64,000 nt of DNA, from contig CAVQGX010000026.1 in assembly GCA_963712115.1 (NCBI GenBank), positions 76,055 to 140,054 of the forward strand, in the 5' to 3' direction. The position numbers were made by a program, and so were the translations under genes. Shown in pieces: positions 27,315 through 42,030 of this stretch. Every line of letters begins with the position of its first letter. The first letter of the stretch is position 1. Below the pieces are notes generated by a model. It searched no databases. It was not told where the DNA came from and saw only the letters and a program-made list of their open reading frames with translations. Origin of the DNA: an uncultured delta proteobacterium (GTDB taxonomy: Bacteria > Desulfobacterota > Syntrophobacteria > BM002).

Positions 27315-28712
27315 CTAAAGCCCAAGATCCAACTTATGAATCGAAAGACCCCTCGCATCCTCCACCGCCTCCCACAACGCTTCCGCAACAGTGGGGTGGG
27401 CATGTATAGTCCGAGCCATCTCGCTGAGGGTCACACCTTGGTTCACGGCCACGGTACATTCAGCAATCAAAGTGCTGGCATCCGGGCCTATTATGTGTAT
27501 GCCTATTACCCTTTCGTCCTTCTCCCGGGCGATTACTTTGACAAAACCGTCTATTTCGCCGATGGCGTGTGATTTTCCCAGGGCGCGAAAAGGGAAAGAT
27601 CCCTCGAGGTAGCCAATACCCTGTTCTTCGCACTGTTGGCTGGTAAGTCCAACGAAGGCAACCTCGGGACTGGTAAATATGGCCACAGGTACAGCGTATT
27701 CGTCCACTTTTGCTTCCTGATTTCCCAATCCATGCTCCACCGCGACTATCCCTTGGTGAGAGGCAAAGTGAGCTAGCTCTCTTTTGCCGGTAACGTCGCC
27801 GATGGCATAAACTCCAGGCAAATTGGTCTGACAGTGCTGATCAACCTGGACATAGCTGTTCTGCAAATTGACGCCAGTGCCATGCAACCCTATCCCTCGA
27901 GAAACAGGAGTTCTTCCCACAGTAACGAGGACCGCTTCTGTCTCGATACGTTTGCCAGAGTCAAGGGTGATTTCCACGCCAGATGAGGTGTGGGAAGCAG
28001 CGACAGGAGGGTCTCCAAGATGCAGTCTTATTTTTCGTTTTTTTAGGGCTCGAATGAGTGCTTTGTTGATGTCCCGATCCAGGTCCTTAATAGGTTCCTT
28101 GCTGCGCTTGGTCATATGGATGGTGGAGCCAAGAGCACTGAAGAGCAGGGCGAATTCACACCCAGATACACCACCGCCCACAATAAAGAGGCTTTCGGGA
28201 ATCTTTGTCAATTCCAGCATGCTGCGGGTGTTAAACACTTTCTTATGGTCCCAGGGCAAGAGATCTAGGGGTAGGGGTTCTGATCCGGTAGCTATGATGA
28301 GCTGTTTGCCGCGAACCCTCTGGATTTGCCCATCCTTCGTCTCAACCTCAACCTCTCCTGGGCCTCGCACCTCTCCTCTGCCCAGGATCAGGTTAACTTT
28401 GTGTTTCTTGAACAATCGTTCGACTCCTTCACGGAGCTCTGCCACAATCCGCTGGTTTCTACCAACAATCTTGTCCAAATGAGCAACAGGGTGCTGGCAA
28501 CTCAGGCCAAATGCTTCCGCCTGGCGCATTTGTTCAAATAGGACGGCGGATTTGTACATGGCCTTGGTAGGAATGCAACCCCAGTTGAGACAGGTCCCGC
28601 CCACCAGTTCCTTTTCGATAATGCAGACTTTGGCTCCTAGTTGGGCGGCCCGAATAGCTGCTACGTAACCACCTGGTCCGGCTCCTAAGATGATCGTATC
28701 GTAATGAGACAT
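27315..28712 (-). CDS. lpdA: Dihydrolipoyl dehydrogenase
   Basis: GAGPGG, GGTCLNWGCIP, HAHPT. Confidence 0.96.
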   Translation of the reverse strand: MSHYDTIILGAGPGGYVAAIRAAQLGAKVCIIEKELVGGTCLNWGCIPTKAMYKSAVLFEQMRQAEAFGLSCQHPVAHLDKIVGRNQRIVAELREGVERLFKKHKVNLILGRGEVRGPGEVEVETKDGQIQRVRGKQLIIATGSEPLPLDLLPWDHKKVFNTRSMLELTKIPESLFIVGGGVSGCEFALLFSALGSTIHMTKRSKEPIKDLDRDINKALIRALKKRKIRLHLGDPPVAASHTSSGVEITLDSGKRIETEAVLVTVGRTPVSRGIGLHGTGVNLQNSYVQVDQHCQTNLPGVYAIGDVTGKRELAHFASHQGIVAVEHGLGNQEAKVDEYAVPVAIFTSPEVAFVGLTSQQCEEQGIGYLEGSFPFRALGKSHAIGEIDGFVKVIAREKDERVIGIHIIGPDASTLIAECTVAVNQGVTLSEMARTIHAHPTVAEALWEAVEDARGLSIHKLDLGL

Positions 28713-28731
28713 TAAACCTGGTCTCCTGCAC

Positions 28732-29838
28732 CTACACATATTTTAGTTCGTAATCTCTGCTTCCAAGTCCCAACTCTTCTGCATAACCTAATTGGATGGA
28801 CCAATCAATGTGAGGGTAGACGCCCCGAAACTTGTCTTCACCAGGCCCTCTATTGCTTTCAAGGCAGCAGTCAGGTAGGGCTGGCTGCGCATTGACTAGA
28901 TCCACTGAAGCCTGGTCGATGGCCACCGGATCCCTGCTTGCCAGAATGCCCAAATCCCTCACTAAAGGAACGTCGCTAAAGCCATAACAGTCGCACTGCG
29001 GAGTTACCCGGCTGACGAAACTGAGGTAGAAGGCACGGTCTTCCTTGTTTTTGAGGACTCCCACCGTGTATTCCACCATTTTCTTCTGAAAACGGGCCGT
29101 GTCGCTATCCCAGGGGATGGAGACAGCCGCTTCCGGGCACACTGCTATGCACTCGCCGCAGCCAATACATTTTTCGGCATCCTTCTTGGCCTTTTTCTTG
29201 AGCAGTTCAATGGCCTCAACAGGACAGTGGGCTACGCACTCGCCACAGCCGATGCACTTTTTGGCGTCGAACTCGGGCGAGATCTCACAATGCTGGGCAA
29301 GTTTTCCTTTTCTGGAGGCACAGCCCATGCCCAGATTCTTAATAGTGCCGCCAAACCCTGCAAGTTCGTGTCCCTTGAAGTGGGCGGCGCTAATGAGAGC
29401 GTCCGCCTGTACCACGTCCCCACCAAGGTAAACTTCATCATAGATGGGAAGGTTCACTGGTACAGCCACCTCAGCGTTACCTCTGAGGCCGTCAGCTATG
29501 GTGAGGGGCGCACCAGCCACAGCATAAGCAAACCCATTCTGAATGGCTGTGGTGAGATGATCCACGCTGTTGGTTCTGGTACCCACATAGAGCGTGTTAG
29601 TATCGGTTAAAAAGGGCTTGCCCCCCAGTTTCTGAACTCGATTGACCAAATGACGCAAGTGCGTGGGCGGAATGTAAGCCGTGTTCCCCTTCTCTCCGAA
29701 GTGCAGCTTGATGGCAATCAGATGCCTTGCCTTGATGATGTCATCGAAACCAGCAGCATCGAGCAAACGATCCAGCTTGACGTAAAGGTTTTCTTGCAAG
29801 CTAGCCCTCAAATCCATGGCAAATACTTCAATCGGCAT
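28732..29838 (-). CDS. DUF362 protein with 2x[4Fe-4S] ferredoxin domain
   Basis: KLHFGE.GN, HFKGH, KNLGMGC, two CxxCxxCxxxCP motifs. Confidence 0.88.
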   Translation of the reverse strand: MPIEVFAMDLRASLQENLYVKLDRLLDAAGFDDIIKARHLIAIKLHFGEKGNTAYIPPTHLRHLVNRVQKLGGKPFLTDTNTLYVGTRTNSVDHLTTAIQNGFAYAVAGAPLTIADGLRGNAEVAVPVNLPIYDEVYLGGDVVQADALISAAHFKGHELAGFGGTIKNLGMGCASRKGKLAQHCEISPEFDAKKCIGCGECVAHCPVEAIELLKKKAKKDAEKCIGCGECIAVCPEAAVSIPWDSDTARFQKKMVEYTVGVLKNKEDRAFYLSFVSRVTPQCDCYGFSDVPLVRDLGILASRDPVAIDQASVDLVNAQPALPDCCLESNRGPGEDKFRGVYPHIDWSIQLGYAEELGLGSRDYELKYV

Positions 29839-29965
29839 GGGTTCCTCCCTTAAGTCTACAATCCAAAAGATAAGGGCGCCCAACCAACAAAAGACAGGGA
29901 GGGCGCCCTTTGATCCGAACCTCTCATCTTCCCCGCCAAGAGAGAAGAAATTGCGGTCGGCCCAC

Positions 29966-31162
29966 CTAATAAACCAGATTCCAACCGCCCTTCCAAATCA
30001 TTACCATAACCATAGAATTAGTGCCCAATCCGTTGTGATCTTTTGGGCTGATGTTGTAGATGCCGCTGATTCCCACATAATTTTTGGTCTGTTCAATGGC
30101 ATCACGTAACATAACGTTATTGGTTCCCACCTTTTTCATGGCATTGGCTACGATGTAAATAGCGTCCCAGGCGTAGCCCGAGTGGGTGTTGATGGGAAAC
30201 TGTTTGTCGAAGTCGTACACATCGTTGTAGAGACGGACGAATTCACTAATAACTGCTTTCTGAGGATCTGAATCCGAGAGTTGATTGTATGCCATCAACT
30301 TAGTGGATGGCATGACATTCCCTTCTGAGGCGCTCCCCGCCAGTTCTACGTATTTGGGATCCGGCAAGCCGTGACACTGGATCAGGGGTAGTTTAATCGC
30401 CAGCTGTTTGACATTTTTGGCAACTATCGATCCAGCCGGGCCAATGGTCCAACAGATGATTACCTGGGCGTTGGTGTTCTTGATTTTGGTAAGCTGAGTG
30501 GTCATGTCAGCATCCCTGACCCCAAAGGACTCATCAGCTACAACCTCTAGACCGTAGTCGGGAGCTAATTTGGCAAGCCAGCCCTTCCCGTCACGGCCGA
30601 AGCCGTCAGATGCAGTAATAAGGGCAATATTCTTGACTTTCTTGGCCCTCAGGTACTGGTAGACTTTCTTTACCGCTACGGAACTTCGCTGGGGCGACTT
30701 AAAGATCCACTTGGCAGTGCCGAAATTCTTGCCGCCGTGCATACCCTCCATAATAACCGGATCACCACCCACTGTCATTACGGTAGGGATCTGCTGTTCT
30801 TCGAGGTATTTTTTTACCGCCATGCCCGTGCCCGTTCGGGTGGGGCCGATTAGGGCCACGACCTTTTCTTGCTCAACTAAACGTTTGGCGACCATGAGTG
30901 CCCTGGTAGGGTCGCCCTCGGTGTCCCCAACAACCAGTGCTAGGGGGCGGCCGTTTATACCACCTTCTTTGTTTATTTTCTCAACCACCATCTCAGCCAC
31001 GAGCTTGGTGGGAGTGCCAATAAAAGCCGCAGGACCGGAGAGATCGAAAAAGGCGCCTATCTTGATCGGTTCTTCAGCGGTGGCCTCATTCACAGAATAT
31101 CCAAATGAAAAGGCAACCGTGATGGCAAAGAGCAAAACCATAATCTTTCTCGTCATGTTCAT
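29966..31162 (-). CDS. LivK-family ABC substrate-binding protein
   Basis: Signal peptide, IKIG..DLSG, IN..GGINGR. Confidence 0.93.
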   Translation of the reverse strand: MNMTRKIMVLLFAITVAFSFGYSVNEATAEEPIKIGAFFDLSGPAAFIGTPTKLVAEMVVEKINKEGGINGRPLALVVGDTEGDPTRALMVAKRLVEQEKVVALIGPTRTGTGMAVKKYLEEQQIPTVMTVGGDPVIMEGMHGGKNFGTAKWIFKSPQRSSVAVKKVYQYLRAKKVKNIALITASDGFGRDGKGWLAKLAPDYGLEVVADESFGVRDADMTTQLTKIKNTNAQVIICWTIGPAGSIVAKNVKQLAIKLPLIQCHGLPDPKYVELAGSASEGNVMPSTKLMAYNQLSDSDPQKAVISEFVRLYNDVYDFDKQFPINTHSGYAWDAIYIVANAMKKVGTNNVMLRDAIEQTKNYVGISGIYNISPKDHNGLGTNSMVMVMIWKGGWNLVY

Positions 31163-31365
31163 TCTAAAATCCCCCTTATGTCAAATTGTTGTGCTAAGAG
31201 CTGAAATTCCTATCCCTGGTCAGTTCAGTATCACCTCCTTCTGTTATTTCTCATTTGTAAATTTATGCAAATACGGAAAGTAACAACAATCGTCATATTG
31301 GACCTGCGGTTATCCGGTATGGATGGAATAGTCTGTGGTTCTAGATTTCCCGCCGCAAGCGGGTC

Positions 31366-31549
31366 AAGCCCGGATGTTTCATGAATTGCAGTCACGAGAC
31401 CACGAAGATGGGCGTGCCACCGGGCAACCGCAGGGTGTTGGTTCCGAGGCGTACCTGAATGGTACGTCGCAGGGGTCGACACCCGAGGACGCACGGAGGG
31501 ACGGGCATATCCGTAGTCGCAGTAAGCGATTCATGAAACATCCGGGCTA
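31366..31549. mobile_element. ~184-bp MITE-like element, copy 2
   Basis: Collinear with 15939-16122; terminal repeats GCCCGGATGTTTCATGAAT / ATTCATGAAACATCCGGGC. Confidence 0.8.
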
Positions 31550-31664
31550 AGACGGATTCCGCAATGTCGGAGTCTTTAATTCCAGTCTCAGTGAGCAAAG
31601 TTGTGAGTGAAAGATAGAAATATCCGCAATGATAAATGATAAATGCGAAATGTGAAATCAGAAA

Positions 31665-32954
31665 TTAACCGCGATGATCAAATACCCTCATGCTTTTGCG
31701 CTCAGTTCGTGGCAGACTGCCGTGGTCAATGACTTCCACTTCAGCACTCACCAAAATATGCTTGCGAATGTCCTGGGAAATACGACTGGCTATTGCTTCG
31801 TTATCTTGAGGTTTATAGCGTGGCCGCCGCTCTACTTTGAGGATCATGTAATCGCGGCCGTCTTCTCTTCGTTCGAGATGTACCTGGTACTCGCTGCCTA
31901 TTTCCGCAATCTGTGACAAGAGGTGATCAATTTGTCCGGGGTAAATATTCACCGCCCTGACAATGAACATGTCGTCCGAGCGCCCAAGGATACGGTCGTG
32001 CATGGGCAACGGATTACCGCAAGAGCATGGTTGGGGGATAATCCGCGTCAGGTCTCGAGTTCTATAACGGATTAGTGGAGCTCCTTCTTTGCGCAGGGTG
32101 GTGACTACCATTTCGCCCAATTCTCCCGGTTCAGCCGGCTCGAGGGTTTCAGGATCTATGACTTCCAATATGTAGTAGTCAGCCCAGTAATGGATGCCTT
32201 GGTGTTTACCGCAGTCCAGACCGGTTCCAGGACCGTATAATTCAGTAAGGCCGGGTATATCAAACACGTGTTCAACTCCGAGGAGTTCCTTGATGCGTCG
32301 GTCCATAGATTCGCTGTGCCGCTCTGCACCCAGAATGACTTTCCTCAGGGTTATTTGCTCCCGAAGGTTCCTCTTTTGCACCTCTTCTCCCATTAGAAGT
32401 GCCATGGAAGCGGTGGCGCAGAAGACTGTACTTTGCATGTCCACCAACATCTCACAATGCATCTCCGTATTTCCAGGGCCTACAGGCACCGCCATGGCAC
32501 CTAGTCTCTCGCAGCCCAATTGAAATCCGACACCAGCAGTCCACAGGCCATAGCCCACGGCTATTTGGACCCGGTCCTCTGCCGAAAGGCCCGCCATCTC
32601 ATAGCAGCGGGCGAACATGTTGGCCCAGTCGTCAATGTCTTTCTGGGTATAGCAAAGGACTTTGCGTTTTCCTGTGGTGCCCGATGAGGCGTGAATGCGG
32701 ACAATTCGGTCGAAGGGCACGGCCCTTAAGGGAAAAGGATAGCCCTCCCGTAAGTCATCGGCCGTGGTAAAGGGCAGTCTAATCAAATCATCCAGCGAGT
32801 TGATCTCCTCTGGAGTGATTCCAGCCTTCTGCAACCGCTGGCGATAAAAGGGTGAGTTCTCATATGCATGGCGTACTGTCCATTTCAGCCCCTCTAGTTG
32901 TAAACTCTTCAATTCCTCTAAGGTCGCAATGTTCGGCATGAACGTACGAGTCAT
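31665..32954 (-). CDS. Phenylacetate-CoA ligase family protein (intact motifs)
   Basis: RIHASSGTTGK, GLTELYGPG, RYRTRD, GRSDDM. Confidence 0.92.
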   Translation of the reverse strand: MTRTFMPNIATLEELKSLQLEGLKWTVRHAYENSPFYRQRLQKAGITPEEINSLDDLIRLPFTTADDLREGYPFPLRAVPFDRIVRIHASSGTTGKRKVLCYTQKDIDDWANMFARCYEMAGLSAEDRVQIAVGYGLWTAGVGFQLGCERLGAMAVPVGPGNTEMHCEMLVDMQSTVFCATASMALLMGEEVQKRNLREQITLRKVILGAERHSESMDRRIKELLGVEHVFDIPGLTELYGPGTGLDCGKHQGIHYWADYYILEVIDPETLEPAEPGELGEMVVTTLRKEGAPLIRYRTRDLTRIIPQPCSCGNPLPMHDRILGRSDDMFIVRAVNIYPGQIDHLLSQIAEIGSEYQVHLERREDGRDYMILKVERRPRYKPQDNEAIASRISQDIRKHILVSAEVEVIDHGSLPRTERKSMRVFDHRG

Positions 32955-33343
32955 AGCAACTTCTCCAAGTCGAACAAGATACCAGTTTTGATATGAGATG
33001 TGGGATGTGCGATAAGATTGATCTTTCTGGAGAGCCAAGATCCTAAATTTCACATCTCAGATCCCATATCTTACATACAGTAGTCAGTAGTCAGTAGTCA
33101 GAATTCAGTAGTCATTTGTTGATTCGAGAATTCGTTAATTAGTCAATTAGCAAATTCGTCGATTCGTTAAAACATAGAAATCGTTTTGAGCTTTTAACGT
33201 TAAACTTCTTATTTCTCGCCGCGTCTCCATGTCGCCGTATCTCCCCGTCGCGCTGAATTTGCCAACTGTTCGCTACTGGCTGTATTTCCCTATGCCCCAT
33301 ACCCTATGCTCTATGCCCCCCAATCCGAAATCTGCAATCTCAT

Positions 33344-34633
33344 CTACTCCTCAAACACGATTTGCCCTTTCTCGCTGGATAACGTACTCTCCTCAACCAG
33401 CTTAACCTTAATGCCCAGGCCGATAGCCCTTCTTAGGTGAGCTCTAATACTGTCTGCCAGAGCGTGAGTCCGGTACCAGTCCGAGACAAAGTTGGTGGGA
33501 TAGGCGACCTGCACTTCCAACTGGTCATTCAGACCGTCACGCTGGCGAATAATTAGTCGATAGTTTTCTACTTCGGGTGCTGCCTCCCCAAGCAAACGTG
33601 CCACCTGTTCTGGATAAATAGCTATACCGCGTATCATGAGCAAATCGTCTGAGCGACTCAAGGGCGCTGCCATCCGCATACTGGTGCGACCGCACGGACA
33701 AGGGTTGCAATCCAAAGTGGTAATATCACCTGTTCTGAAACGGATAAAAGGATAGCCTTCGTTGGTGAGAGTGGTGATGACCAGTTCACCTTTTTGTCCT
33801 AGAGTCAAAGGCTGGCACGAATGGGGATCAACGACCTCTGGATAAAAGTGGTCCTCCGCCAGGTGGAGTCCTGATTTTTCCTGACATTCCGCTGAAACTC
33901 CCGGTTCAACCATTTCGTTGACACCGTAGACTGAATAGGCCTGAATTCGAAGACGGTCTTCCAGAGTCCGACGGACGTGGGGCGACATGGCTTCGGGACC
34001 TAATAGTCCAATTTTGAGGTGTATCTGATTGATATCAATGTTTTGACGTTCTCTGGTCTCGGCAATGTGCATGGCAAAAGAAGGCGAGGTAGCGAGCACC
34101 GTACTACGGAAATCCTGCATGATTTGCAGTTGAATCGTGGCGGAAGCTATTGAGGTGGGGGCTACGGTGGCGCCCACAAGTTCCGCGGCCTGGTTAAAGG
34201 TGAAGGCACCGGTGAAAAGCCCATAGTTGAAAGCAACCTGAATAATATCTTTAATAGAGATTCCCATACCGGTCATATGTCGCGCCATCAGTTCCAACCA
34301 ATTTTGGACATCTTTCTGGGTATAGCCGATCACAATGGGTTGCCCCTTTGGGGCTGCAGAAAACTTGAGGCGGACAATGGATTTCAACGGCACAGAAAAC
34401 AACCCATAAGGGTAATGATCTGCCAGGTCTGCCGCTGTGGTACAAGGAATTCTCCTGAGATCTTCTAAGGAACTGATGTCTTCGGGCAGTAGACCTAGTT
34501 CCTCGAACCGACGTCGATAGAAATCTACTTTTGCATAGGCACGGTTGAGGGTCACCTGTAAACGTTCAAGCTGCAGCTCGGCCAGCTCTTCCCGCGGGAG
34601 AGTTTCAATGTTTTCGTTCCAGAAGGCTACCAT
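33344..34633 (-). CDS. Phenylacetate-CoA ligase-like paralog with degenerate ATP loop
   Basis: Collinear with its neighbour, but RLKFSAAPKGQP replaces RIHASSGTTGK. Confidence 0.85.
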   Translation of the reverse strand: MVAFWNENIETLPREELAELQLERLQVTLNRAYAKVDFYRRRFEELGLLPEDISSLEDLRRIPCTTAADLADHYPYGLFSVPLKSIVRLKFSAAPKGQPIVIGYTQKDVQNWLELMARHMTGMGISIKDIIQVAFNYGLFTGAFTFNQAAELVGATVAPTSIASATIQLQIMQDFRSTVLATSPSFAMHIAETRERQNIDINQIHLKIGLLGPEAMSPHVRRTLEDRLRIQAYSVYGVNEMVEPGVSAECQEKSGLHLAEDHFYPEVVDPHSCQPLTLGQKGELVITTLTNEGYPFIRFRTGDITTLDCNPCPCGRTSMRMAAPLSRSDDLLMIRGIAIYPEQVARLLGEAAPEVENYRLIIRQRDGLNDQLEVQVAYPTNFVSDWYRTHALADSIRAHLRRAIGLGIKVKLVEESTLSSEKGQIVFEE

Positions 34634-34861
34634 TCCTCTTTCGCCCTCCTCTCGTCTCAAAATGTCACAATGTCATTTGGGATTGGGCTTCGCCCGTCAT
34701 TAGGCCTTAAGGCCGTCATTTTTGGTCATGTGCCTGCGGCGTCATTCGGGCTAGCGCCCGTCATTTATGGTCACTTGTAGTTATTTGTCCTATTCATTAT
34801 CATCAATCATGACGACTTAATGACAACAAATGACAGCGAAGCGTAATGACCAAATGACAAT

Positions 34862-35599
34862 CTACCTTTCCCACTTCTCCTTGTAATCCTTGCCCAAAAA
34901 GGCACGGCGCACCTCATCATTTGCCAGAAGCTCGTCAGGTGTTCCTTCGAGAACAATGCGGCCAGCCTCCAATACGTAGGCCCGATCGCAGATTTCCAAG
35001 GCAGCCTGAGCGTTCTGTTCAACTAAAAGTATGGTAGTGCCGTTGTCCCGAAGCTTGCGGGTTACCTGCAGAATCTCCTGTGCCACGAGAGGTGCCAGTC
35101 CTAACGATGGTTCGTCGAGGAGAAGCATTCTGGGCCTGGCCATGAGAGCCCGTCCAATGGACAGCATCTGTTGCTCACCACCACTCAAAGTGCCAGCCCT
35201 CTGCTGGGTTCGCTCTTCCAGGATAGGGAAGAGAGTGTAAATTTCCTGACGCTGAGATTTGGCCATCCTTTTTTGCTCTTTTTTAGGGAGACTGTAGGAT
35301 CCCAATTCCAGATTCTCAGTGACTGTCATTGAGTTAAAGATCTGCCTCTGTTCCGGTACTTGCAGGAGACCAAGGCGAACCATCTTATCCGGTGCCAGTT
35401 TGTGAATCTCCTGACGCTCAAAGAAAATACTGCCAGAACTGGCTGGGTGCAGCCCGCTAATCACGTTGAGCAGGGTGCTCTTTCCCGCACCGTTGCCCCC
35501 AATAAGAGAGACTATCTCTCCTTTGTTGACATGGAAGGTCACCCTGCGGAGCACCTGAATATTTCCGTAATATGCCGAGACGTTCTTTACGAGAAGCAT
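34862..35599 (-). CDS. LivF-like ABC ATPase
   Basis: GGNGAGKST, LSGGEQQM, LLDEPSLGLAP. Confidence 0.95.
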   Translation of the reverse strand: MLLVKNVSAYYGNIQVLRRVTFHVNKGEIVSLIGGNGAGKSTLLNVISGLHPASSGSIFFERQEIHKLAPDKMVRLGLLQVPEQRQIFNSMTVTENLELGSYSLPKKEQKRMAKSQRQEIYTLFPILEERTQQRAGTLSGGEQQMLSIGRALMARPRMLLLDEPSLGLAPLVAQEILQVTRKLRDNGTTILLVEQNAQAALEICDRAYVLEAGRIVLEGTPDELLANDEVRRAFLGKDYKEKWER

Positions 35600-35844
35600 G
35601 GCTGTATTCTTGTCTGTTGTCCGCGGTCCGTAGTCCGTTGCTCGAATCGTTCAAGCCGTTCAAGTCGTCCATCACAGAGGTCATCGGAGATCAGAGATCA
35701 GCTTTTCCCTTTGACCTCCGACATCTGATGTCTGACCTCTGGTTTCTGCCAGTTGCTAGCTGCCAGCTTTATTTTCCCTATGCTCCATGCCCTATGCTCT
35801 ATGCTTTTGACAAAACGAACAACTCGACAGTGCGCATGAACCAA

Positions 35845-36627
35845 CTACGTGGAGCCGCCACCTAAATACGCCCGGATTACCTCCGGATCCCTTTGGATCT
35901 CCTCGGGTGAACCTTCAGCGATCTTCAACCCGTGATGTAGGACAATGACCCTATGGGCTATGCTCATAACCAAATTCATGTCATGTTCAACCAGTAGAAT
36001 GGTTAGGCCGTTTTGCCGCAATCCCTTGATAATGTCACCCATCTCCTCCGTTTCCCGGATGTTGAGACCCGCAGCAGGTTCGTCCAAAAGCAGTAAACAG
36101 GGGTCAGACACGACGGAACGGGCAATTTCCAAACATCTTTGTTCTTTCAGGCTAATGCTGTCCGCCTTTCGGTAAGCTAAATGGCCGATGCCGAACTTCT
36201 CCAGTGTATCTCCGGCCTGACCTATTGCCTTTTTCTCCTCTTGCCGTTCTGCGGGCAAGTGTACCATACCTTTGAGAAAACCGCTGCGCAACCGGTGGTG
36301 CAGCCCCAGTAAGACGTTCTCCATTACGGTCATATGCTGAAAGATCTGGACTGACTGAAAAGTTCTTGCCACTCTTTTTTTGGCAATCTGGTAAGGCTTT
36401 AGCCCTGAAATGCTTTCTCCATCGAGCAAAATCTCACCACTGGTTGGAGGATAGACCCCAGAGATAAGGTTGAGTATTGTAGTTTTCCCCGCGCCGTTTG
36501 GGCCAATAAGAGATACGATTTCACCTGAGTCCAGACGGAAGGAAACGTCCGCAATCGCCAGCAACCCATCGAACTGCTTTTTAACTTCTTCGAGGTGTAA
36601 TAGGGTGCCGTTAGTTTTCATTGCCAT
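35845..36627 (-). CDS. LivG-like ABC ATPase
   Basis: GPNGAGKTT, LLLDEPAAG, VEHDM. Confidence 0.95.
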   Translation of the reverse strand: MAMKTNGTLLHLEEVKKQFDGLLAIADVSFRLDSGEIVSLIGPNGAGKTTILNLISGVYPPTSGEILLDGESISGLKPYQIAKKRVARTFQSVQIFQHMTVMENVLLGLHHRLRSGFLKGMVHLPAERQEEKKAIGQAGDTLEKFGIGHLAYRKADSISLKEQRCLEIARSVVSDPCLLLLDEPAAGLNIRETEEMGDIIKGLRQNGLTILLVEHDMNLVMSIAHRVIVLHHGLKIAEGSPEEIQRDPEVIRAYLGGGST

Positions 36628-36649
36628 TGGCGAAGCGCCCTCTCCCTTC

Positions 36650-36830
36650 AGACGACTGTGTCACAATTCGCCGAAGCCGTCATTCCGGATGAGTCCGCCG
36701 AAGTATAGGCGGGCGAGGTCCGGAATCCAGCGAGGTTTCAATATAGTCTGATTCTTCCTGGATCCCGGCTCGCGTCCCGCTTTGCGAGACTTGGCCGGGA
36801 TGACTTATGGTGCAACAGCCTCCAGGGTTA
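36650..36830. repeat. REP-like palindrome (GTCATTCCGG...CCGGAATCCAG / CTGGATCCCGG...CCGGGATGAC)
   Basis: Two inverted arms, each containing an internal hairpin. Confidence 0.7.
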
Positions 36831-36851
36831 TGGAGGTTTTTTTGTAAGATT

Positions 36852-37817
36852 CTATTCTGATAACAAAATTTTCTTTGACCGCTTCTGAGACCATAGCTTT
36901 ACCAGTCCCGGCAGCAAGCCTTCCGGAAAGAACACCAGAACTCCCATCAGGATTACCCCATAAAGCAGGAGGGCGTAATCACGCATGGCATGGAGCACTT
37001 CAGGCAAAGCCGTGAGCAATGCAGCGCCCAGTAAACCTCCCCAGAGATTACCTATACCCCCCACCACCACCATAGTGACAACCTGAATGGAATAAAAGAT
37101 GTCAAAAGTCTTGGGACTGATAAATGAGAGGTAGTGGGCATAAAGGCTCCCCGCCAGAGAGGCATAGGCTGCGCTGATAGCAAAGATGACAATCTTGTAG
37201 CGTTCGGTGTTGACTCCCAGGGCATTGGCTACAAGTTCATTTTCATGAATAGCTCGAAGTGCCCGGCCCACGCGGGAATCCACCAGGTTAAGAGAAACAA
37301 AGAAAACTAGCAGGAAAAAGGACCATAGTAGCCAGTAATAGTGGAGGTCACCCTGGATGGTAAAAGACCCCAGGTGGAGAGGAGGGATTCCAGAGAAACC
37401 AGATGGCCCACCAGTCCAATATTCCATCTGGACCATAAGAATGTAGAGGATGATGTTAAAGCCCAAGGTTGCCATGACCAGGTAGTGGCCCGCAAGCCTA
37501 AGAGTTGGTATACCCAACACATACGCGACCGCAGCAGTAAAGACCATTACCGCCACTAAAGTCGGCCAGGGCGGTGTATTATACATGGCGGTAAAGATGG
37601 CCGAGAAGTACGCCCCCATCCCGAAAAAGGCCGCATGGCCCAGTGAGATTTGACCAGCAAACCCGATCAGCAGGTTCAAGCCAAGGACCACCAGGCCGTT
37701 TATCGCAATAATATTCAGGACCAGCAGGTAGTAGCCTCCTTTGACTACGAGGGGAAGCAGGGCCACTAGCCCTGTCAGTCCAAAGAAGTAAATCCATTTT
37801 TTGTGGGTCTTAGACAT
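36852..37817 (-). CDS. LivM-like ABC permease
   Basis: GQISLGHAAFFG, SRVGRALRAI, multiple TM segments. Confidence 0.95.
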   Translation of the reverse strand: MSKTHKKWIYFFGLTGLVALLPLVVKGGYYLLVLNIIAINGLVVLGLNLLIGFAGQISLGHAAFFGMGAYFSAIFTAMYNTPPWPTLVAVMVFTAAVAYVLGIPTLRLAGHYLVMATLGFNIILYILMVQMEYWTGGPSGFSGIPPLHLGSFTIQGDLHYYWLLWSFFLLVFFVSLNLVDSRVGRALRAIHENELVANALGVNTERYKIVIFAISAAYASLAGSLYAHYLSFISPKTFDIFYSIQVVTMVVVGGIGNLWGGLLGAALLTALPEVLHAMRDYALLLYGVILMGVLVFFPEGLLPGLVKLWSQKRSKKILLSE

Positions 37818-38068
37818 AACAAAAGAGTCCGTGGCAATTAAGGCTAACTAGATGGCACAAGGCGCAGGGCGCAAGGCAGCATTAGGTCATTATGCTCCGC
37901 GCTGTCGCGCTTCGCTGTCACTAGGCTCCGCCGTCATTAGGCCTTACGGCCGTCATTATGTTGTTACAATAAATGACCATGAATGACAGCGTAGCGTATT
38001 GACGCGAAAGCAAATGACTCTCCGCTGGCCGCTGATTTAACCGCTATGCCCTATGCTCTTTGCTCTTT

Positions 38069-38956
38069 CTATACTCGCTTGATCTCTTCCTTGCCAAACA
38101 GCCCTGTGGGTTTGATAAAGAGCACCAGCAACAGGATAAGAAAAGCAAAGGCGTCCTTGTAAGCAGATGAGACAAAGCCAGCACCAAAGGTTTCCATGGC
38201 CCCGAGAAGAAGTCCACCCAGTACTGCGCCCTTCATGCTGCCGTAACCACCCAATATTGCAGCAGCAAAGCCTTTTAGTGCCAGCATGACCCCAGCGCTG
38301 TATGACATAGTGGTAATTGGGGTAATAATGATACCGGCCACCGCTCCGATCCCGCCACTGAGAACGAAAGAAAGCAATGTCATGCGGTATACGCCTATAC
38401 CAATAAGGGCAGCCCCTCGCCGATTCTCAGCCACTGCTCTCATGGCTTTGCCTACCATGGTGCGACTGAAAAAAAAGCCGAGCAAAACAACTACCAGCAG
38501 GGTGATTCCCAGGATCCAAAGAGTTTGGGGTAGGATAGCAGCACTGCCTAGGATCAATGGTTCATCACCAGAAAAAGGCGGCAAAGTCCGCGGGGTTTTA
38601 CCCCATATATGCATGGCCGTTTCCCGCATGGTGATAGAAGCGCCCACGGTGATCATCACCAGAATCAGAATGCTGTCCGAGCGAGCCCTACGAATAGGTC
38701 CAATCTCCATTAACCAACCCACTACCATTACAGCTAGCACCGCCAGAGGAAAGGCTATGAGCAGCGGAAGTCCAGCAACCTGGGTGAGGCTGATCATGGT
38801 CATGGCGCCGAGCATGACAAACTCTCCCTGGGCGAAGTTGACAATGCCTGTGGCGTTATGAATGATCCCGAAACCCAGGGCAATGAGGGCATAAATACTG
38901 CCACTAGTGAGTCCTGATACAAAGAATTGAGGGAGCTGAGACCAGATCATAAGCAC
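38069..38956 (-). CDS. LivH-like ABC permease
   Basis: GSIYALIALG, VNFAQGE, KGFAAAILGG, KPTGLFG. Confidence 0.95.
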   Translation of the reverse strand: MLMIWSQLPQFFVSGLTSGSIYALIALGFGIIHNATGIVNFAQGEFVMLGAMTMISLTQVAGLPLLIAFPLAVLAVMVVGWLMEIGPIRRARSDSILILVMITVGASITMRETAMHIWGKTPRTLPPFSGDEPLILGSAAILPQTLWILGITLLVVVLLGFFFSRTMVGKAMRAVAENRRGAALIGIGVYRMTLLSFVLSGGIGAVAGIIITPITTMSYSAGVMLALKGFAAAILGGYGSMKGAVLGGLLLGAMETFGAGFVSSAYKDAFAFLILLLVLFIKPTGLFGKEEIKRV

Positions 38957-39227
38957 AAAGCTGCTAGTTTGGTTGTTTTTTGATCAGTCTATTTTTTCTC
39001 AACTTCGAATCACCAAAATTCAAAACAGAACGTTTTTGCCACTGGCAAAAGGGAATGATTTTTGATGTGAAATCAAGTTTCGGTCATTTGAACTTAGGAT
39101 TTTGGATTTGTTTGGATATTCGAATTTCGATATTCGGATTTGATGAGTTTACTCATCGCTGGCCTCAATGGGGGCCAGAATAGAGATTTTGTAATAGGTC
39201 AGCAAATCTCTATGAACAATCCGGCCC

Positions 39228-39266
39228 AAAAACAGAAAAGCCGTGAGCTTTAAAGCCGCCCACGGC
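39228..39266 (-). terminator. Attenuator terminator
   Basis: GCCGTGGGC-ggctttaaa-GCTCACGGC followed by TTTTCTGTTTTT. Confidence 0.8.
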
Positions 39267-39290
39267 GATAATCTTGTGACCGGAATCAGT

Positions 39291-39359
39291 TCATGTGGGC
39301 CTGTGGGCGGACCTATCCTTGGAACTCCACCACCAAGGCCATGAACGATTCAGGTGCAT
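39291..39359 (-). CDS. Trp-rich attenuator leader peptide MHLNRSWPWWWSSKDRSAHRPT
   Basis: GAGG RBS; 4 Trp in 5 codons; CCGCCCAC(A)GGC within the ORF is complementary to the terminator 5' arm. Confidence 0.8.
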   Translation of the reverse strand: MHLNRSWPWWWSSKDRSAHRPT

Positions 39360-39645
39360 CCGCTAACCTCTTGGAAACAGGAACCTAAGTCAATTTCGCT
39401 ACATAGCAGACCCGCGGTTGGAGTGTCAAGGGAAATTCAGCGGAACGAAGCATAGGGCATAGGGCATAGGGCATAGAGCATAGAGTAAGTAGCCAGAAGT
39501 CAGAATCCAGGATTCAGGAGAAAAGCAATCAAGATGGAATTCCCTGCAACTTCTGGCATTTTCGCCGTGTCTCCGTCTCGCCGTTTCACCGTGTCGCCCT
39601 GCAGTGCCTAGTTGAAATGGATGCCTACTCCAAAGTGCCCAGCAG

Positions 39646-41511
39646 TTACTTCTCCGCGCCACATAACACCTTGTGCGGTTCCTCATTAACCGCCAAGCTC
39701 AGAACCTGCTCACCCTCTCGAAACATGAGCCGTTTGGCAACCATATGAGAAATAAAATTCTGCAGCTTATCGAAAGACAAGCTGGGAAATTCATGGAGGA
39801 TCTGGCCCTGAGTTCGACGTGTTTCACAAAAGCGATAAATACCCCGCGAGGATCCCTTGAGTCGAAAGGTCTCCATCTCGTAATCTTTGGTTCGCCGACG
39901 GATTAAGAGAAAATCTCCTCCGTCACGGTAGCCAAGCAAAGGGGCAGGGAAATGGTCTTTTCGAAGTGAGTGGTATCGCTCTTGCCAGCTGGCAAGCTCC
40001 CTAGCTACCGGCCGCCAGAGTTTCTTTTGTTTGGTGCGATCGCCTCTGTATGTTTTTATCATTAGGCAGAGGGACTCTGCGAGTGAGTGCGGGAGCAACT
40101 TCTTATAGTGTGGGTGATTGGCCACACTGCGGATGCCAAATTGTTCCGGGTGAAGGTGCACCGGGCTATTTTGCCCCAGCCAGAAAAGGACTTTGCGAAG
40201 AGGTTGATAGGGTAGGACAAACTTGAGATTGTTGAGGGTTTCCTCAACATCATTGCCATCGCTTGTTGGAAAGCCCAGGATCAGGTTGGATGAATGCTGG
40301 ATGCCCAGTTCCTCGCAGTGTTTCATCATCTCGATGTTTTGGATGGCCGTGGTCCCTTTGTTTATTTTATCAAGGAGTCTGGTGCTCAGGGCCTCAACTC
40401 CAATCTGGACCTGATTGACCCCGGCTTTCCGCATCTGAATGAGATCGCCACGTGAGACAGATGACCTTAATTCAGCAAAGATCTCGAAGCTCCGATCTAT
40501 ATCAGTGATAGATTTGAAGAGTCCTTTGAGCTTGCGGCTGTCCAGAATGTTGTCAGTAAAGGAGAATTTCAGACTAGAGTGTTTGCTGGCCAACTCTTCC
40601 ATTTCCCGCGCTACTTGAATGGGTTCTTTGCTCCTGTACCCTCGCCACTGCAAATTAAGATTGCAGAATTTGCAGGCACGATCGACCGAGCCAGACCTTA
40701 CTCTTTGCCACCAGCATCCTCGAGAGGTTTCCACCGGTAGATTGGGTATTAGGTTGGACAAACGAGATTGACGACTTAATTGCTCAAAATAGTCACTGTA
40801 GTCTGGCACAGGAAGTTCTTTCAGGTTCAATAGCTGTTTCAGCCCTCCCCCATTGATATTACCCTGGTTATCCCGCCAAAGCAGGCCGGCAGGGTCATCA
40901 CCTTTGAAGTCGCCATTCTTGATTCGGTTAATCAAAGTTAACAGCGGCAGTTCACCCTCTCCGCTCGCCACGAAGTCGATCTCAGGTGAGTTGGCAAGGA
41001 GGGAGTAACCCAGTTCGCCTGCGCAACTTGATCCGCCAACCACTATGGGGCAAGGGGGATGATGCCTGCGGATCTCCCTGATCATATAGAGAGATGAGGT
41101 CAATTGGGAAAGACAGATTGAAAAACCGATGAGATCATAAGAAGACCAAGCCAGAGTGAGATGTTTCCTTTGGTGCAAGCGGTGAATCTGTCTGGAGATA
41201 TTTTCAAGATCTGGAGAATCCCCTTTTGCCTTGGCACTATACTCCTTGGTAACTAGATCAGTTATTTCACGTCTTCCTGTCGGGTTGAACAGATAAGCGT
41301 AAACGGATTCTGCTACCCAGGTTCGCTCGGCAATATCATTGTAGGCTTTGAGCCCCAATAAATTGCCCACCTCGAGGTAAGGATGGTAACAGTCAATCTT
41401 TACGTCTGCCGCTTTGTTTTCGATGAAACTCTTTAGGGTGCCTAGTTGTATGGAAGGTCGGTTGGCCAAGGGCCAAGGCATGGATATGAGAGCGAGGCGG
41501 AATGCCGCCAT
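39646..41511 (-). CDS. B12-binding radical SAM enzyme, RiPP C-methyltransferase-like (TIGR03975-like)
   Basis: LISMPW..PSIQLGTLK, GGSSC, GEGE, ETSRGCWW...CKFC, QIGVEALS. Confidence 0.85.
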   Translation of the reverse strand: MAAFRLALISMPWPLANRPSIQLGTLKSFIENKAADVKIDCYHPYLEVGNLLGLKAYNDIAERTWVAESVYAYLFNPTGRREITDLVTKEYSAKAKGDSPDLENISRQIHRLHQRKHLTLAWSSYDLIGFSICLSQLTSSLYMIREIRRHHPPCPIVVGGSSCAGELGYSLLANSPEIDFVASGEGELPLLTLINRIKNGDFKGDDPAGLLWRDNQGNINGGGLKQLLNLKELPVPDYSDYFEQLSRQSRLSNLIPNLPVETSRGCWWQRVRSGSVDRACKFCNLNLQWRGYRSKEPIQVAREMEELASKHSSLKFSFTDNILDSRKLKGLFKSITDIDRSFEIFAELRSSVSRGDLIQMRKAGVNQVQIGVEALSTRLLDKINKGTTAIQNIEMMKHCEELGIQHSSNLILGFPTSDGNDVEETLNNLKFVLPYQPLRKVLFWLGQNSPVHLHPEQFGIRSVANHPHYKKLLPHSLAESLCLMIKTYRGDRTKQKKLWRPVARELASWQERYHSLRKDHFPAPLLGYRDGGDFLLIRRRTKDYEMETFRLKGSSRGIYRFCETRRTQGQILHEFPSLSFDKLQNFISHMVAKRLMFREGEQVLSLAVNEEPHKVLCGAEK

Positions 41512-41849
41512 CAGTGAGGTCTCTTCATCCAAACAAGAGCTAACTCCGCAGAGGGATTGTATTTACAAAAACGCATTTCGGAGGTCTTATCCACTGATTG
41601 CTTCAGGGATATAATCCGGTCGAACTCACGGTTGACCACGACCTGACAAAATCCCATTTCCTCCTCTGCAGAGAGAAACAAAAGATCGCTGGGCAAGACG
41701 GACCTTGCCATTAAAGCCATATCGTCATCGAGGAGATCACTGCTGCAGATCCTGTAGCAGGCTCCACAAGCGCAACTATAGACATCGTCGAAGTCAAGGG
41801 GAACAGGGTGTTTTCTCTCACAAAAGGGGCAAACGATATTGAGGTGCAT
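41511..41849 (-). CDS. Small Cys-rich (zinc-ribbon-like) hypothetical protein
   Basis: CPFC...CACGAC..C; stop overlaps the rSAM start (TGATG). Confidence 0.75.
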   Translation of the reverse strand: MHLNIVCPFCERKHPVPLDFDDVYSCACGACYRICSSDLLDDDMALMARSVLPSDLLFLSAEEEMGFCQVVVNREFDRIISLKQSVDKTSEMRFCKYNPSAELALVWMKRPH

Positions 41850-42030
41850 GGGGAAATCTCCGTTCTAGTTTGTCGCTGACACCAGTCTGGCCAGGGTGCA
41901 AGCCTAGTTCAATCGAGACAAGGAAAGAAACCACAGTAAACTCAGAGGGGTATCTATATCATAGATGCTAGAAATGTGGCACCATTTATTTTGCTCACTC
42001 TCTGACATTTGTGTTCTCCGTGCTATGAGT

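Follow-up and report, generated by a model that had tools for sequence, protein, structure and literature searches.

The stretch of DNA analysed here, hereafter the window, comprises 64,000 nucleotides (nt) from the genome of an uncultured sediment delta proteobacterium, represented by a 4.9-Mb assembly of 70 contigs with 48.9% G+C. On its minus strand, between positions 29966 and 39429, it carries a short leader encoding a run of tryptophan (Trp) codons, followed by genes for a Liv-type ABC transporter, two PaaK-like ligases and a periplasmic binding protein. Structural and comparative analyses of the leader indicate that it is very probably a genuine Trp attenuator. All features of the leader and its operon described below are read on the minus strand and are given in window coordinates.

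Gene families in the operon were assigned with Pfam and NCBIfam models. The first gene (38069..38956) encodes a livH-type permease (Pfam BPD_transp_2, E 1.3e-37), whose N-terminus MIWSQLPQFF, common to the orthologues, marks the ATG at 38950 as its likely start. It is followed by a livM-type permease (36852..37817; BPD_transp_2, E 2.1e-45), a livG-type ATPase (35845..36627; ABC_tran and BCA_ABC_TP_C, with 290.9 bits in the LivG model against a cut-off of 362) and a livF-type ATPase (34862..35599; ABC_tran, with 276.4 bits in the LivF model against 441). Downstream lie two genes for PaaK-like aryl-coenzyme A (CoA) ligases, ligase 1 (33344..34660, likely start 34633) and ligase 2 (31665..33053, likely start 32954), both with AMP-binding and AMP-binding_C_2 domains and scoring 387.2 and 411.3 bits, respectively, in model TIGR02155 (cut-off 646.3). 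The last gene (29966..31162) encodes a periplasmic binding protein of the HAAT family with an N-terminal signal peptide (Peripla_BP_6, E 8.5e-54). An earlier note on this DNA, made from its letters alone, had read the gene order as livH-livM-livG-livF-ligase-ligase-binding protein, which both model collections bear out. With two BPD_transp_2 permeases, two ABC ATPases with the BCA C-terminal motif and a Peripla_BP_6 protein, the locus has the composition of a HAAT-type importer, and all components score below the LivHMGF/LivJK equivalog cut-offs (LivH 129 of 379 bits, LivG 291 of 362, LivF 276 of 441, binding protein 57.6 of 477).

Judged by these models, the two ligases are members of a PaaK-like family. 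Ligase 1 is the less conserved of the two: its identity with orthologues in other genera is about 50%, and it is lacking in some orthologous operons and in family f3. Ligase 2 is 71-78% identical across the class and 59-78% across loci, and shares just 33-39% identity with the other four ligases of its own genome. In most loci it occurs together with the binding protein, and among solved structures it is closest to 4R1L, a phenylacetate-CoA ligase.

Upstream of livH, the promoter, the leader with WPWWW, the antiterminator and the U-tailed terminator that the earlier note had placed on the minus strand were all found in position. The promoter (39400..39429) consists of a -35 element TTGACA at 39429-39424, an 18-nt spacer and an extended -10 element TGcTATGTA at 39408-39400, and it is kept in 5 of 5 aligned congeneric leaders; a consensus promoter scan does not list it because its -10 hexamer matches at just three of six positions. 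A Shine-Dalgarno sequence, GAGG at 39370-39367, stands 7 nt before the ATG at 39359 that opens a leader open reading frame (ORF) of 22 codons, MHLNRSWPWWWSSKDRSAHRPT (39359-39291), closed by the stop codon TGA at 39293-39291. Four of five consecutive codons at 39341-39327 specify Trp in the run WPWWW. Region 2 of the switch, CCGCCCACAGGC (39310-39299), encodes the conserved RSAH end of the leader peptide; it forms the 5' arm of the antiterminator and also pairs with region 1, the region of the Trp codons. Region 3, GCCGTGGGCGG (39266-39256), can pair with region 2 or with region 4, GCTCACGGC (39248-39240), which is the 3' arm of the terminator. Regions 3 and 4 together (39240..39266) form a terminator with a 9-bp stem and a 9-nt loop, followed by the U tract TTTTCTGTTTTT at 39239-39228. 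The leader accordingly brings together a short ORF with a ribosome-binding site behind a promoter, conserved Trp codons, mutually exclusive helices, a U-tract terminator and a suitable geometry, the sequence features by which a trpL-type attenuator is recognized.

The significance of each fold was estimated by folding each element alone and comparing it with 200 shuffles. The terminator reaches -17.7 kcal/mol (z -4.0, no shuffle as good), the antiterminator formed by regions 2 and 3 reaches -22.6 kcal/mol (z -2.4, 4 of 200 as good), and the hairpin of regions 1 and 2, which includes the Trp codons, reaches -20.2 kcal/mol (z -1.65, 15 of 200 as good). Folded whole and at equilibrium, the leader adopts the 1:2 and 3:4 pairings, the classical 'off' state of an attenuator. 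Restricting the equilibrium calculation to the RNA that a ribosome halted at the Trp codons leaves exposed again yields the terminator, because sequence behind the terminator was included, which makes this calculation uninformative on the co-transcriptional choice. The terminator is unlisted by the consensus terminator scan because its 9-nt loop exceeds the 8-nt limit of that scan; the scan lists as many promoters and terminators in shuffles as in the sequence itself, and it is uninformative on internal promoters.

As read from the sequence, the geometry of the leader fits the classical attenuation model. The last Trp codon ends at 39327, 16 nt before the start of region 2 (39310), and the stop codon sits 6 nt behind region 2, so that a ribosome at the stop, given the generally known ribosome footprint, covers region 2. 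Transcription is predicted to start about 35 nt before the leader ATG. With ample charged tRNA-Trp, the translating ribosome would reach the UGA at 39293-39291 and cover region 2, the 3:4 terminator would form and transcription would stop at the U tract. With scarce charged tRNA-Trp, the ribosome would stall on the WPWWW codons (39341-39327), leaving region 2 free to pair with region 3; this 2:3 pairing would block the terminator and let the polymerase read into livH. Contigs from the RNA libraries of two studies cover the leader and all genes of the operon; such contigs show neither starts, ends nor levels, and DNA may be present in the libraries. One of them (X15 record 7) joins 39396-39158 to 38960-38805, weakly linking the leader with livH, and two others extend upstream beyond the predicted promoter, to 39437 and 39464. 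The RNA-library contigs lend no support to the start site or to termination.

An Rfam cmscan of window positions 28000-42000 at a threshold of E<=1 returned no leader, riboswitch or T-box family, with one chance snoRNA match; the leader likewise has no match there to Trp_leader, the Rfam family of the enterobacterial trpL attenuator. Small Trp-rich ORFs number about 230 in a six-frame scan of the 4.9-Mb genome, and those that are intergenic and associated with a terminator occur just here and before trpE.

A lack of conserved Trp codons in orthologous leaders had been named beforehand as a finding that would refute attenuation. We examined three sets of related loci, counting a leader as Trp-rich when at least three Trp fall within six residues: a congeneric set of DNA upstream of the livH orthologue from 12 genomes (11 assessable, one having just 124 nt before a contig end), 12 mapped loci of the orthologous operon from other genera, and a wider set of 80 loci from a search with the binding-protein alignment. 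In the wider set, 40 operon starts were assessable, the remaining 40 loci being cut by contig ends or starting with a ligase or the binding protein. The closest orthologues belong to records labelled as metagenome-assembled genomes of Deltaproteobacteria, Syntrophobacterales or Desulfobacterota, and more distant ones to Desulfacinum, Desulfosoma, Desulforhabdus and Syntrophobacter. In four of the 11 assessable congeners the leader is present, within about 220 nt of DNA that also take in the promoter and are 78-95% identical; their peptides are MRLNRSWPWWWWSY (G016), MRLNRSWPWWWGNS (G006), MHLNRSWPWWWSSKDRSAHTPT (G002) and MTSNHAWFWWWWILRERSAHSPT (G010), with Trp runs of WPWWW(W) or WFWWWW. The start codon, Shine-Dalgarno sequence, four Trp codons, stop codon and three pairing regions are kept in five species.

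In other genera, each of the 12 loci has iorA and a POR-family iorB upstream of livH and in the same orientation, and five of these loci carry a Trp-rich leader before iorA that ends in RSAH or a close variant (...RWFWWWSSPQVKPVHR, ...FWWCWWWQFARGVRSAHR, ...GRFWWWRIIRGVRSAHQ, ...NWWRWWWSGPGVRSAHR and ...LRWFMWWQISPEEFAHSL). A sixth locus (G030) has the same leader in a two-Trp form, WFGW, a seventh (G024) has a doubtful ORF with FWKPW before the operon, and no leader was found in the other five. Across the wider set, 13 of 40 assessable operon starts have a Trp-rich leader and 2 more have the two-Trp form. Among cultured bacteria, Desulfacinum infernum DSM 9756 (L070) carries the leader before iorAB-livHMGF-ligase-ligase-binding protein, and D. 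hydrothermale (L071) carries it with just two Trp codons. Operons that begin with iorAB have it in 7 of 10 cases (plus 2 with the two-Trp form), operons of the window type in 1 of 4, those consisting of livHMGF and the binding protein alone in 5 of 16, and the single operon of livHMGF, ligase 2 and binding protein lacks it (0 of 1). Counted with duplicates removed, a Trp-rich leader precedes the orthologous operon in at least 19 genomes of Syntrophobacteria and other Desulfobacterota-type assemblies, the window's own included, the 18 further genomes having 3-5 Trp within 6 residues; two more have 2 Trp. The orthologous leaders keep their Trp runs, and attenuation is not refuted.

Other arrangements were seen among these loci. 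At L085, L100, L101, L105 and L118, in records labelled Aquificota, Aquificales, Thermodesulfobacteriota or 'bacterium', a leader of the form ...QAWWW(W)... and two tandem hairpins precede livHMGF and the binding protein alone, in whose vicinity neither a ligase nor iorAB is encoded. Nine loci with Desulfuromonadales or Geobacteraceae labels (L090, L107, L110, L111, L117, L119, L121, L122 and L126) have iorA-iorB between livH and livM and no aromatic-rich leader. At L062, L064 and L066, a conserved 40-codon ORF with PSWW lies about 200-350 nt before pairs of ligase 2 and binding protein; this ORF may be a degenerate leader or, in DNA so rich in G+C, a frame open by chance.

The pairing of the leader RNA is conserved along with its codons. 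In an alignment that spans region 2 to the U tract of 14 diverse leaders, the antiterminator helix is paired in 98.2% of 112 cells, compared with 34-54% after a shift of the partner by 1-3 columns, and three of its eight pairs are changed on both sides. The terminator helix is paired in 96.8% of 126 cells, with one pair changed on both sides. The sequences are related and most pairs are invariant, and these figures represent conservation plus a few compensations rather than strong statistics. In the two Desulfosoma leaders, region 3 has a G-to-A change and regions 2 and 4 both have the corresponding C-to-U change, which is the pattern expected if one strand pairs alternately with two partners. 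On this comparison of sequences, the recurrence of the leader in orthologous positions with conserved pairing is more than chance, and the ribosome-mediated Trp attenuation proposed in the earlier note gains support both from the conserved Trp runs and from two helices kept with compensatory changes.

The same type of switch recurs within the genome. A strict terminator regular expression missed the window's own terminator, and a covariance model built from 14 Trp leaders was used instead; run on the own genome at E<=1, it gave 8 matches, with the window site at E 2.7e-15. One attenuator (C7:30177-30271) precedes trpEGDCFBA, with leader MKKNLNRQKNLVNWYWWWYVCVGVYPLPGE and the Trp run NWYWWWY. 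Another (C43:40911-41000) precedes a paralogous binding-protein/livHMGF/ligase/iorA/iorB operon, with a Tyr/Phe leader, MAFSARQTVLQRYYYFFYYFSGETSVH, followed by two terminators. The others precede leuA, encoding 2-isopropylmalate synthase (C42:67151-67253, leader with LLLLL; one further match is the reverse-strand duplicate of this site), DAHP synthase (C33:109735-109820, leader with YYFYY) and ADH synthase with DHQ synthase II (C7:22135-22226, leader with FFCYYYY). A partial match at C7:8491-8531, also found by pattern at C7:8486 with a small ORF containing FFF, was rejected as the bidirectional terminator of two TPR genes, between which it lies on both strands. All 12 retrieved loci of the paralogous operon have a Tyr-rich leader, and a search of 21 other genomes of the family matched its DNA in 19.

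These sister attenuators share a CCAC / GTGG / CCAC-GGC core and a leader end that encodes region 2; they differ in their regulatory codons (Trp, Tyr/Phe or Leu) and in the genes they control, and some have two tandem hairpins. Since this family of switches precedes genes of amino-acid supply, with codons that match the pathway, both transporter-ligase operons are placed in that set, and the window operon would belong to a starvation-induced biosynthetic attenuation regulon. The own genome has both an archaeal-type entry to the aromatic pathway (ADH synthase and 3-dehydroquinate synthase II at C7:20194-22019, locus L034 194-2019, beside the trp operon) and a classical AroFGH-type DAHP synthase (on C33, L148 1191-2348), each with its own Tyr/Phe-rich leader.

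Outside the own genus, the order of the operon is leader-iorA-iorB-livH, and this iorAB-bearing form is the commoner one in the class. The leader of G018, a genome of the same family in which iorAB is present, shares with the window leader the AGGTTAGCGG-ATG context. Because the iorAB form is common in the class and this context is shared, the arrangement in the window is read as a deletion of iorAB with the leader kept. Other species of the genus appear to have lost the leader as well as iorAB. A search for iorAB and trp genes, suggested beforehand as a check, gave a mixed result: iorAB is present in the orthologues of other genera and trpEGDCFBA stands behind a homologous Trp leader, and the window operon itself has no iorAB.

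The binding protein falls, by sequence similarity, in an apparent aromatic-acid-binding subgroup. Its best PDB matches are 7YLT, 3SG0, 3UK0, 4DQD, 3TX6 (3TX6/4FB4) and 4JB0; those of subcluster B-III (probably 7YLT, with 3UK0 and 4JB0) match nearly its full length at E values from 3.7e-31 (7YLT) to 4e-29. Aromatic-acid binders match at E 1e-31 to 1e-29, compared with 1e-15 or weaker for solved LIV-type binders. 7YLT is probably IadK2 of Variovorax, a binding protein reported to be specific for indole-3-acetate, since this code appears in the paper on IadK2. The Rhodopseudomonas palustris and related binders (3SG0, 3UK0, 4DQD, 3TX6/4FB4 and 4JB0) are likewise reported to have aromatic carboxylic acids as ligands.

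These observations suggest that the locus probably combines a trpL-type Trp-sensing attenuator with an operon for the uptake and CoA activation of an aromatic acid, for which indole-3-acetate is the most likely candidate. LivHMGF and the binding protein would import an aryl acid, which the two PaaK-like ligases would convert to aryl-acetyl-CoA; reductive carboxylation by indolepyruvate:ferredoxin oxidoreductase (IOR) could then yield the aryl-pyruvate, and transamination the amino acid. We infer how the operon responds to Trp, what the binding protein and the ligases act on, which way the flux runs and that all seven genes are read from this promoter. That the cargo is indole-3-acetate destined for Trp synthesis is, in our judgement, an even call. 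The Trp-linked salvage of aryl acids put forward in the earlier note is supported, at the level of sequence, by iorA in 12 of 12 other-genera operons, the homologous leader of the trp operon, the Tyr/Phe-led iorAB paralogue, the aromatic-acid-binding relatives and ligase scores beneath the PaaK cut-off. More tentatively, and slightly short of an even call, the codon-swapped homologous attenuators (Trp here, Tyr/Phe in the paralogue) may label the substrates of paralogous importer/aryl-CoA ligase/IOR modules, with Desulfobacterota inducing, for each scarce amino acid, the matching aryl-acetate salvage and its reductive carboxylation, in parallel to the de novo pathways and under similar wiring.

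Several observations weigh against this interpretation. At the level of the switch, the equilibrium fold of the whole leader is the terminator form, and switching rests on a kinetic argument. The intergenic gaps of the operon (200-500 nt) all contain multicopy interspersed repeats, with 14 to 189 own-genome BLAST matches per gap, and about 270 nt, including one repeat copy, lie between the terminator and livH; with this gap and these repeats, the leader is not assured of controlling the distal genes. The leader is also unevenly distributed: in 7 of the 11 assessable congeners it is absent, the end of a radical-SAM gene and short repeats being followed directly by livH, 11 of the 16 operons of livHMGF and binding protein have no convincing leader, operons of the Desulfuromonadales type have it in 0 of 9 cases, and several other lineages have no leader or just two Trp codons. 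No iorAB lies between leader and livH in the window operon or elsewhere in the own genus, and the one match in the own genome above the IorA cut-off is in the Tyr/Phe-controlled operon on contig C43; since the operon is without iorAB, the pathway here would depend on an enzyme under different control, or on another oxidoreductase. As for the substrate, both ligases score far below the PaaK equivalog cut-off (646.3) and no model names what they act on. Three pocket residues of IadK2, Phe168, Trp172 and Arg199, align with Ala184, Phe188 and Val215 in the binding protein (by our own count on the alignment), and since they are not kept, the binding protein gives no readable specificity. Finally, the existence of leader-controlled operons with livHMGF and the binding protein only means that the cargo could be Trp itself.

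This last point leads to the alternative that survives best, in which the attenuator is real, the transporter imports Trp itself (or another amino acid), Trp being a cargo that the earlier note also allowed for, and the ligases serve a different, co-located function. HAAT-family transporters commonly carry amino acids, LivH/M/G/F are the best NCBIfam matches of the components, and the 5 of 16 operons of livHMGF and binding protein alone that carry a Trp leader have no ligase nearby. However, the solved proteins nearest to the binding protein have aromatic carboxylic acids as ligands, with LIV binders scoring far lower, ligase 2 accompanies the binding protein in most loci at 59-78% identity, and iorAB is in the same operon at 12 of 12 other-genera loci; we regard import of Trp as unlikely, if still a serious contender.

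It is improbable that the operon is a catabolic one, for phenylacetate-type degradation or fermentation through IOR, with the leader as a decaying relic. In other bacteria, PaaK-family ligases do begin the anaerobic degradation of phenylacetate, and the loss of iorAB here, the loss of the leader in 7 of 11 assessable congeners and the invasion of the operon by repeats would suit a relic. Yet every functional part of the leader, from the start codon to the three pairing regions, is intact in five species, induction by starvation suits supply and not breakdown, and the sister attenuators precede biosynthetic genes only (trp, leuA, DAHP synthase, and ADH synthase with DHQ synthase II); furthermore, AMP-forming ligases conserve no energy in the oxidative direction.

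A TnaC-like sensor, in which a nascent Trp-containing peptide would stall the ribosome at high free Trp and induce the operon, shares with the window locus a short Trp-containing leader before an operon other than trp. Here, by contrast, the run of Trp codons differs between leaders in length (3-5) and in what flanks it, what is conserved is RNA pairing and not a peptide arrest motif, the terminator is intrinsic with a competing antiterminator rather than a Rho site, and homologous leaders with Tyr, Phe or Leu runs stand before the matching biosynthetic genes, all of which makes such a sensor very improbable. Least credible of all is a chance ORF beside an ordinary terminator of the upstream radical-SAM gene: the hairpin does lie about 400 nt downstream of that gene on the same strand, and small W-rich ORFs are common (about 230 in the six-frame scan), but a promoter stands between gene and leader, leader and hairpins precede iorA or livH in genomes without a radical-SAM neighbour, and the covariation in two competing helices and the comparative data contradict it.

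Compared with known systems, the proposed Trp attenuation combines a textbook mechanism with what appears to be a new target operon. Like enterobacterial trpL, the locus has a short leader with a Trp run, the 1:2, 2:3 and 3:4 pairings, an intrinsic terminator before the structural genes and a stop codon from which region 2 is covered; it differs in having four Trp in five codons where trpL has two adjacent Trp, in belonging to another phylum and in controlling a transporter-ligase operon instead of trp genes. In methanogens and rumen anaerobes, aryl acetates are converted to the CoA ester, then to the aryl pyruvate by IOR and to the amino acid by an aminotransferase; that route is not known to include a dedicated ABC importer or amino-acid-specific attenuation. 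The orthologous operons described here resemble it in encoding ligase and IorAB together, whereas the window operon is without iorAB. The B-III binders (IadK2, RPD1889 = 3UK0 and CouP/RPA1789 = 4JB0) are the best solved relatives of the window binding protein, but the kinship is distant and they serve aerobic degradation or the uptake of lignin monomers.

For a 'tryptophan (iorAB-paaK)' operon of Geobacter, Aklujkar et al. (2009, PMC2700814) report a conserved 5' sequence, which their Table 2 places among 'possible promoters and riboswitches'. That operon is made of the same gene families, is filed under tryptophan biosynthesis and has a conserved upstream element, but the paper describes no leader peptide for it. 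The orthologous operon of Desulfuromonadales has the order livH-iorAB-livM... and no leader in any of nine cases, and no aromatic-rich leader was found before 7 iorA copies in three Desulfuromonadales genomes. Rodionov et al. (2004, PMC545781) do not describe a delta-proteobacterial Trp attenuator: the terms tryptophan, attenuator, indolepyruvate and leader peptide are absent from their text. We found no published account of a Trp attenuator before iorAB, liv or paaK genes in a search that left subscription journals outside its range.

The repeat-bearing gaps, located by BLAST, are 31163-31664, 33054-33343, 34661-34861, 35600-35844, 36628-36851, 37818-38068, 38957-39225 and 39430-39645. The spacer between terminator and livH (38957..39227, minus strand) contains a copy of a short interspersed repeat with 20 own-genome BLAST matches, and it is replaced in relatives, in which 38960-39158 is skipped and 74 other letters stand instead. 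The 500-nt gap between ligase 2 and the binding protein contains a multicopy interspersed repeat of about 185 nt (31367..31550) with 189 own-genome BLAST matches, which also matches itself in reverse; in four RNA libraries its contig depth is 5-30 times that of neighbouring bins, with many differing flanks and loose ends. The repeats in the gaps may hold signals of their own. In the spacer next to the promoter, the heptanucleotide CTATGCC is repeated in tandem 4-5 times at 39449-39484 (minus strand), and relatives L001-L012 have similar 7-nt repeats just before livH that translate as HFRHFRHF.

Upstream of the leader, the minus strand encodes a B12-binding radical-SAM C-methyltransferase for the maturation of ribosomally synthesized and post-translationally modified peptides (39646-41532; TIGR03975, 391.7 bits, above the cut-off), the start of which is overlapped by a 112-residue ORF (41511-41849, minus strand) with no Pfam match. 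In G020, a gene for such a radical-SAM C-methyltransferase precedes iorAB-livH without a leader. Behind the binding-protein gene, also on the minus strand, are genes for a DUF362 protein with two 4Fe-4S motifs and a dihydrolipoyl dehydrogenase (27315-29883). This pair also follows the binding protein in congeneric loci L053, L055 and L058, and 4-6 kb are inserted between the binding-protein gene and the pair at L049, L051 and L056.

Operons that combine a Liv-type transporter, a 'phenylacetate-CoA ligase' and an indolepyruvate oxidoreductase are very common in anaerobes and are routinely annotated as branched-chain amino-acid transport and phenylacetate catabolism. The codons of an attenuator reveal which amino acid is scarce, and they offer, without experiment, a pointer both to the direction of such a pathway (supply, not breakdown) and to its specificity (Trp compared with the Tyr/Phe paralogue). 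Classical attenuation would then be a regulon-wide device in Desulfobacterota, spanning trp, leuA, early genes of the aromatic pathway and salvage operons. The extent to which anaerobes synthesize aromatic amino acids from scavenged aryl acids becomes testable in cultured carriers such as Desulfacinum. If attenuator codons do label substrates in this way, sulfate-reducing and syntrophic Desulfobacterota would scavenge environmental indole-3-acetate and other aryl acetates when the matching amino acid is scarce.

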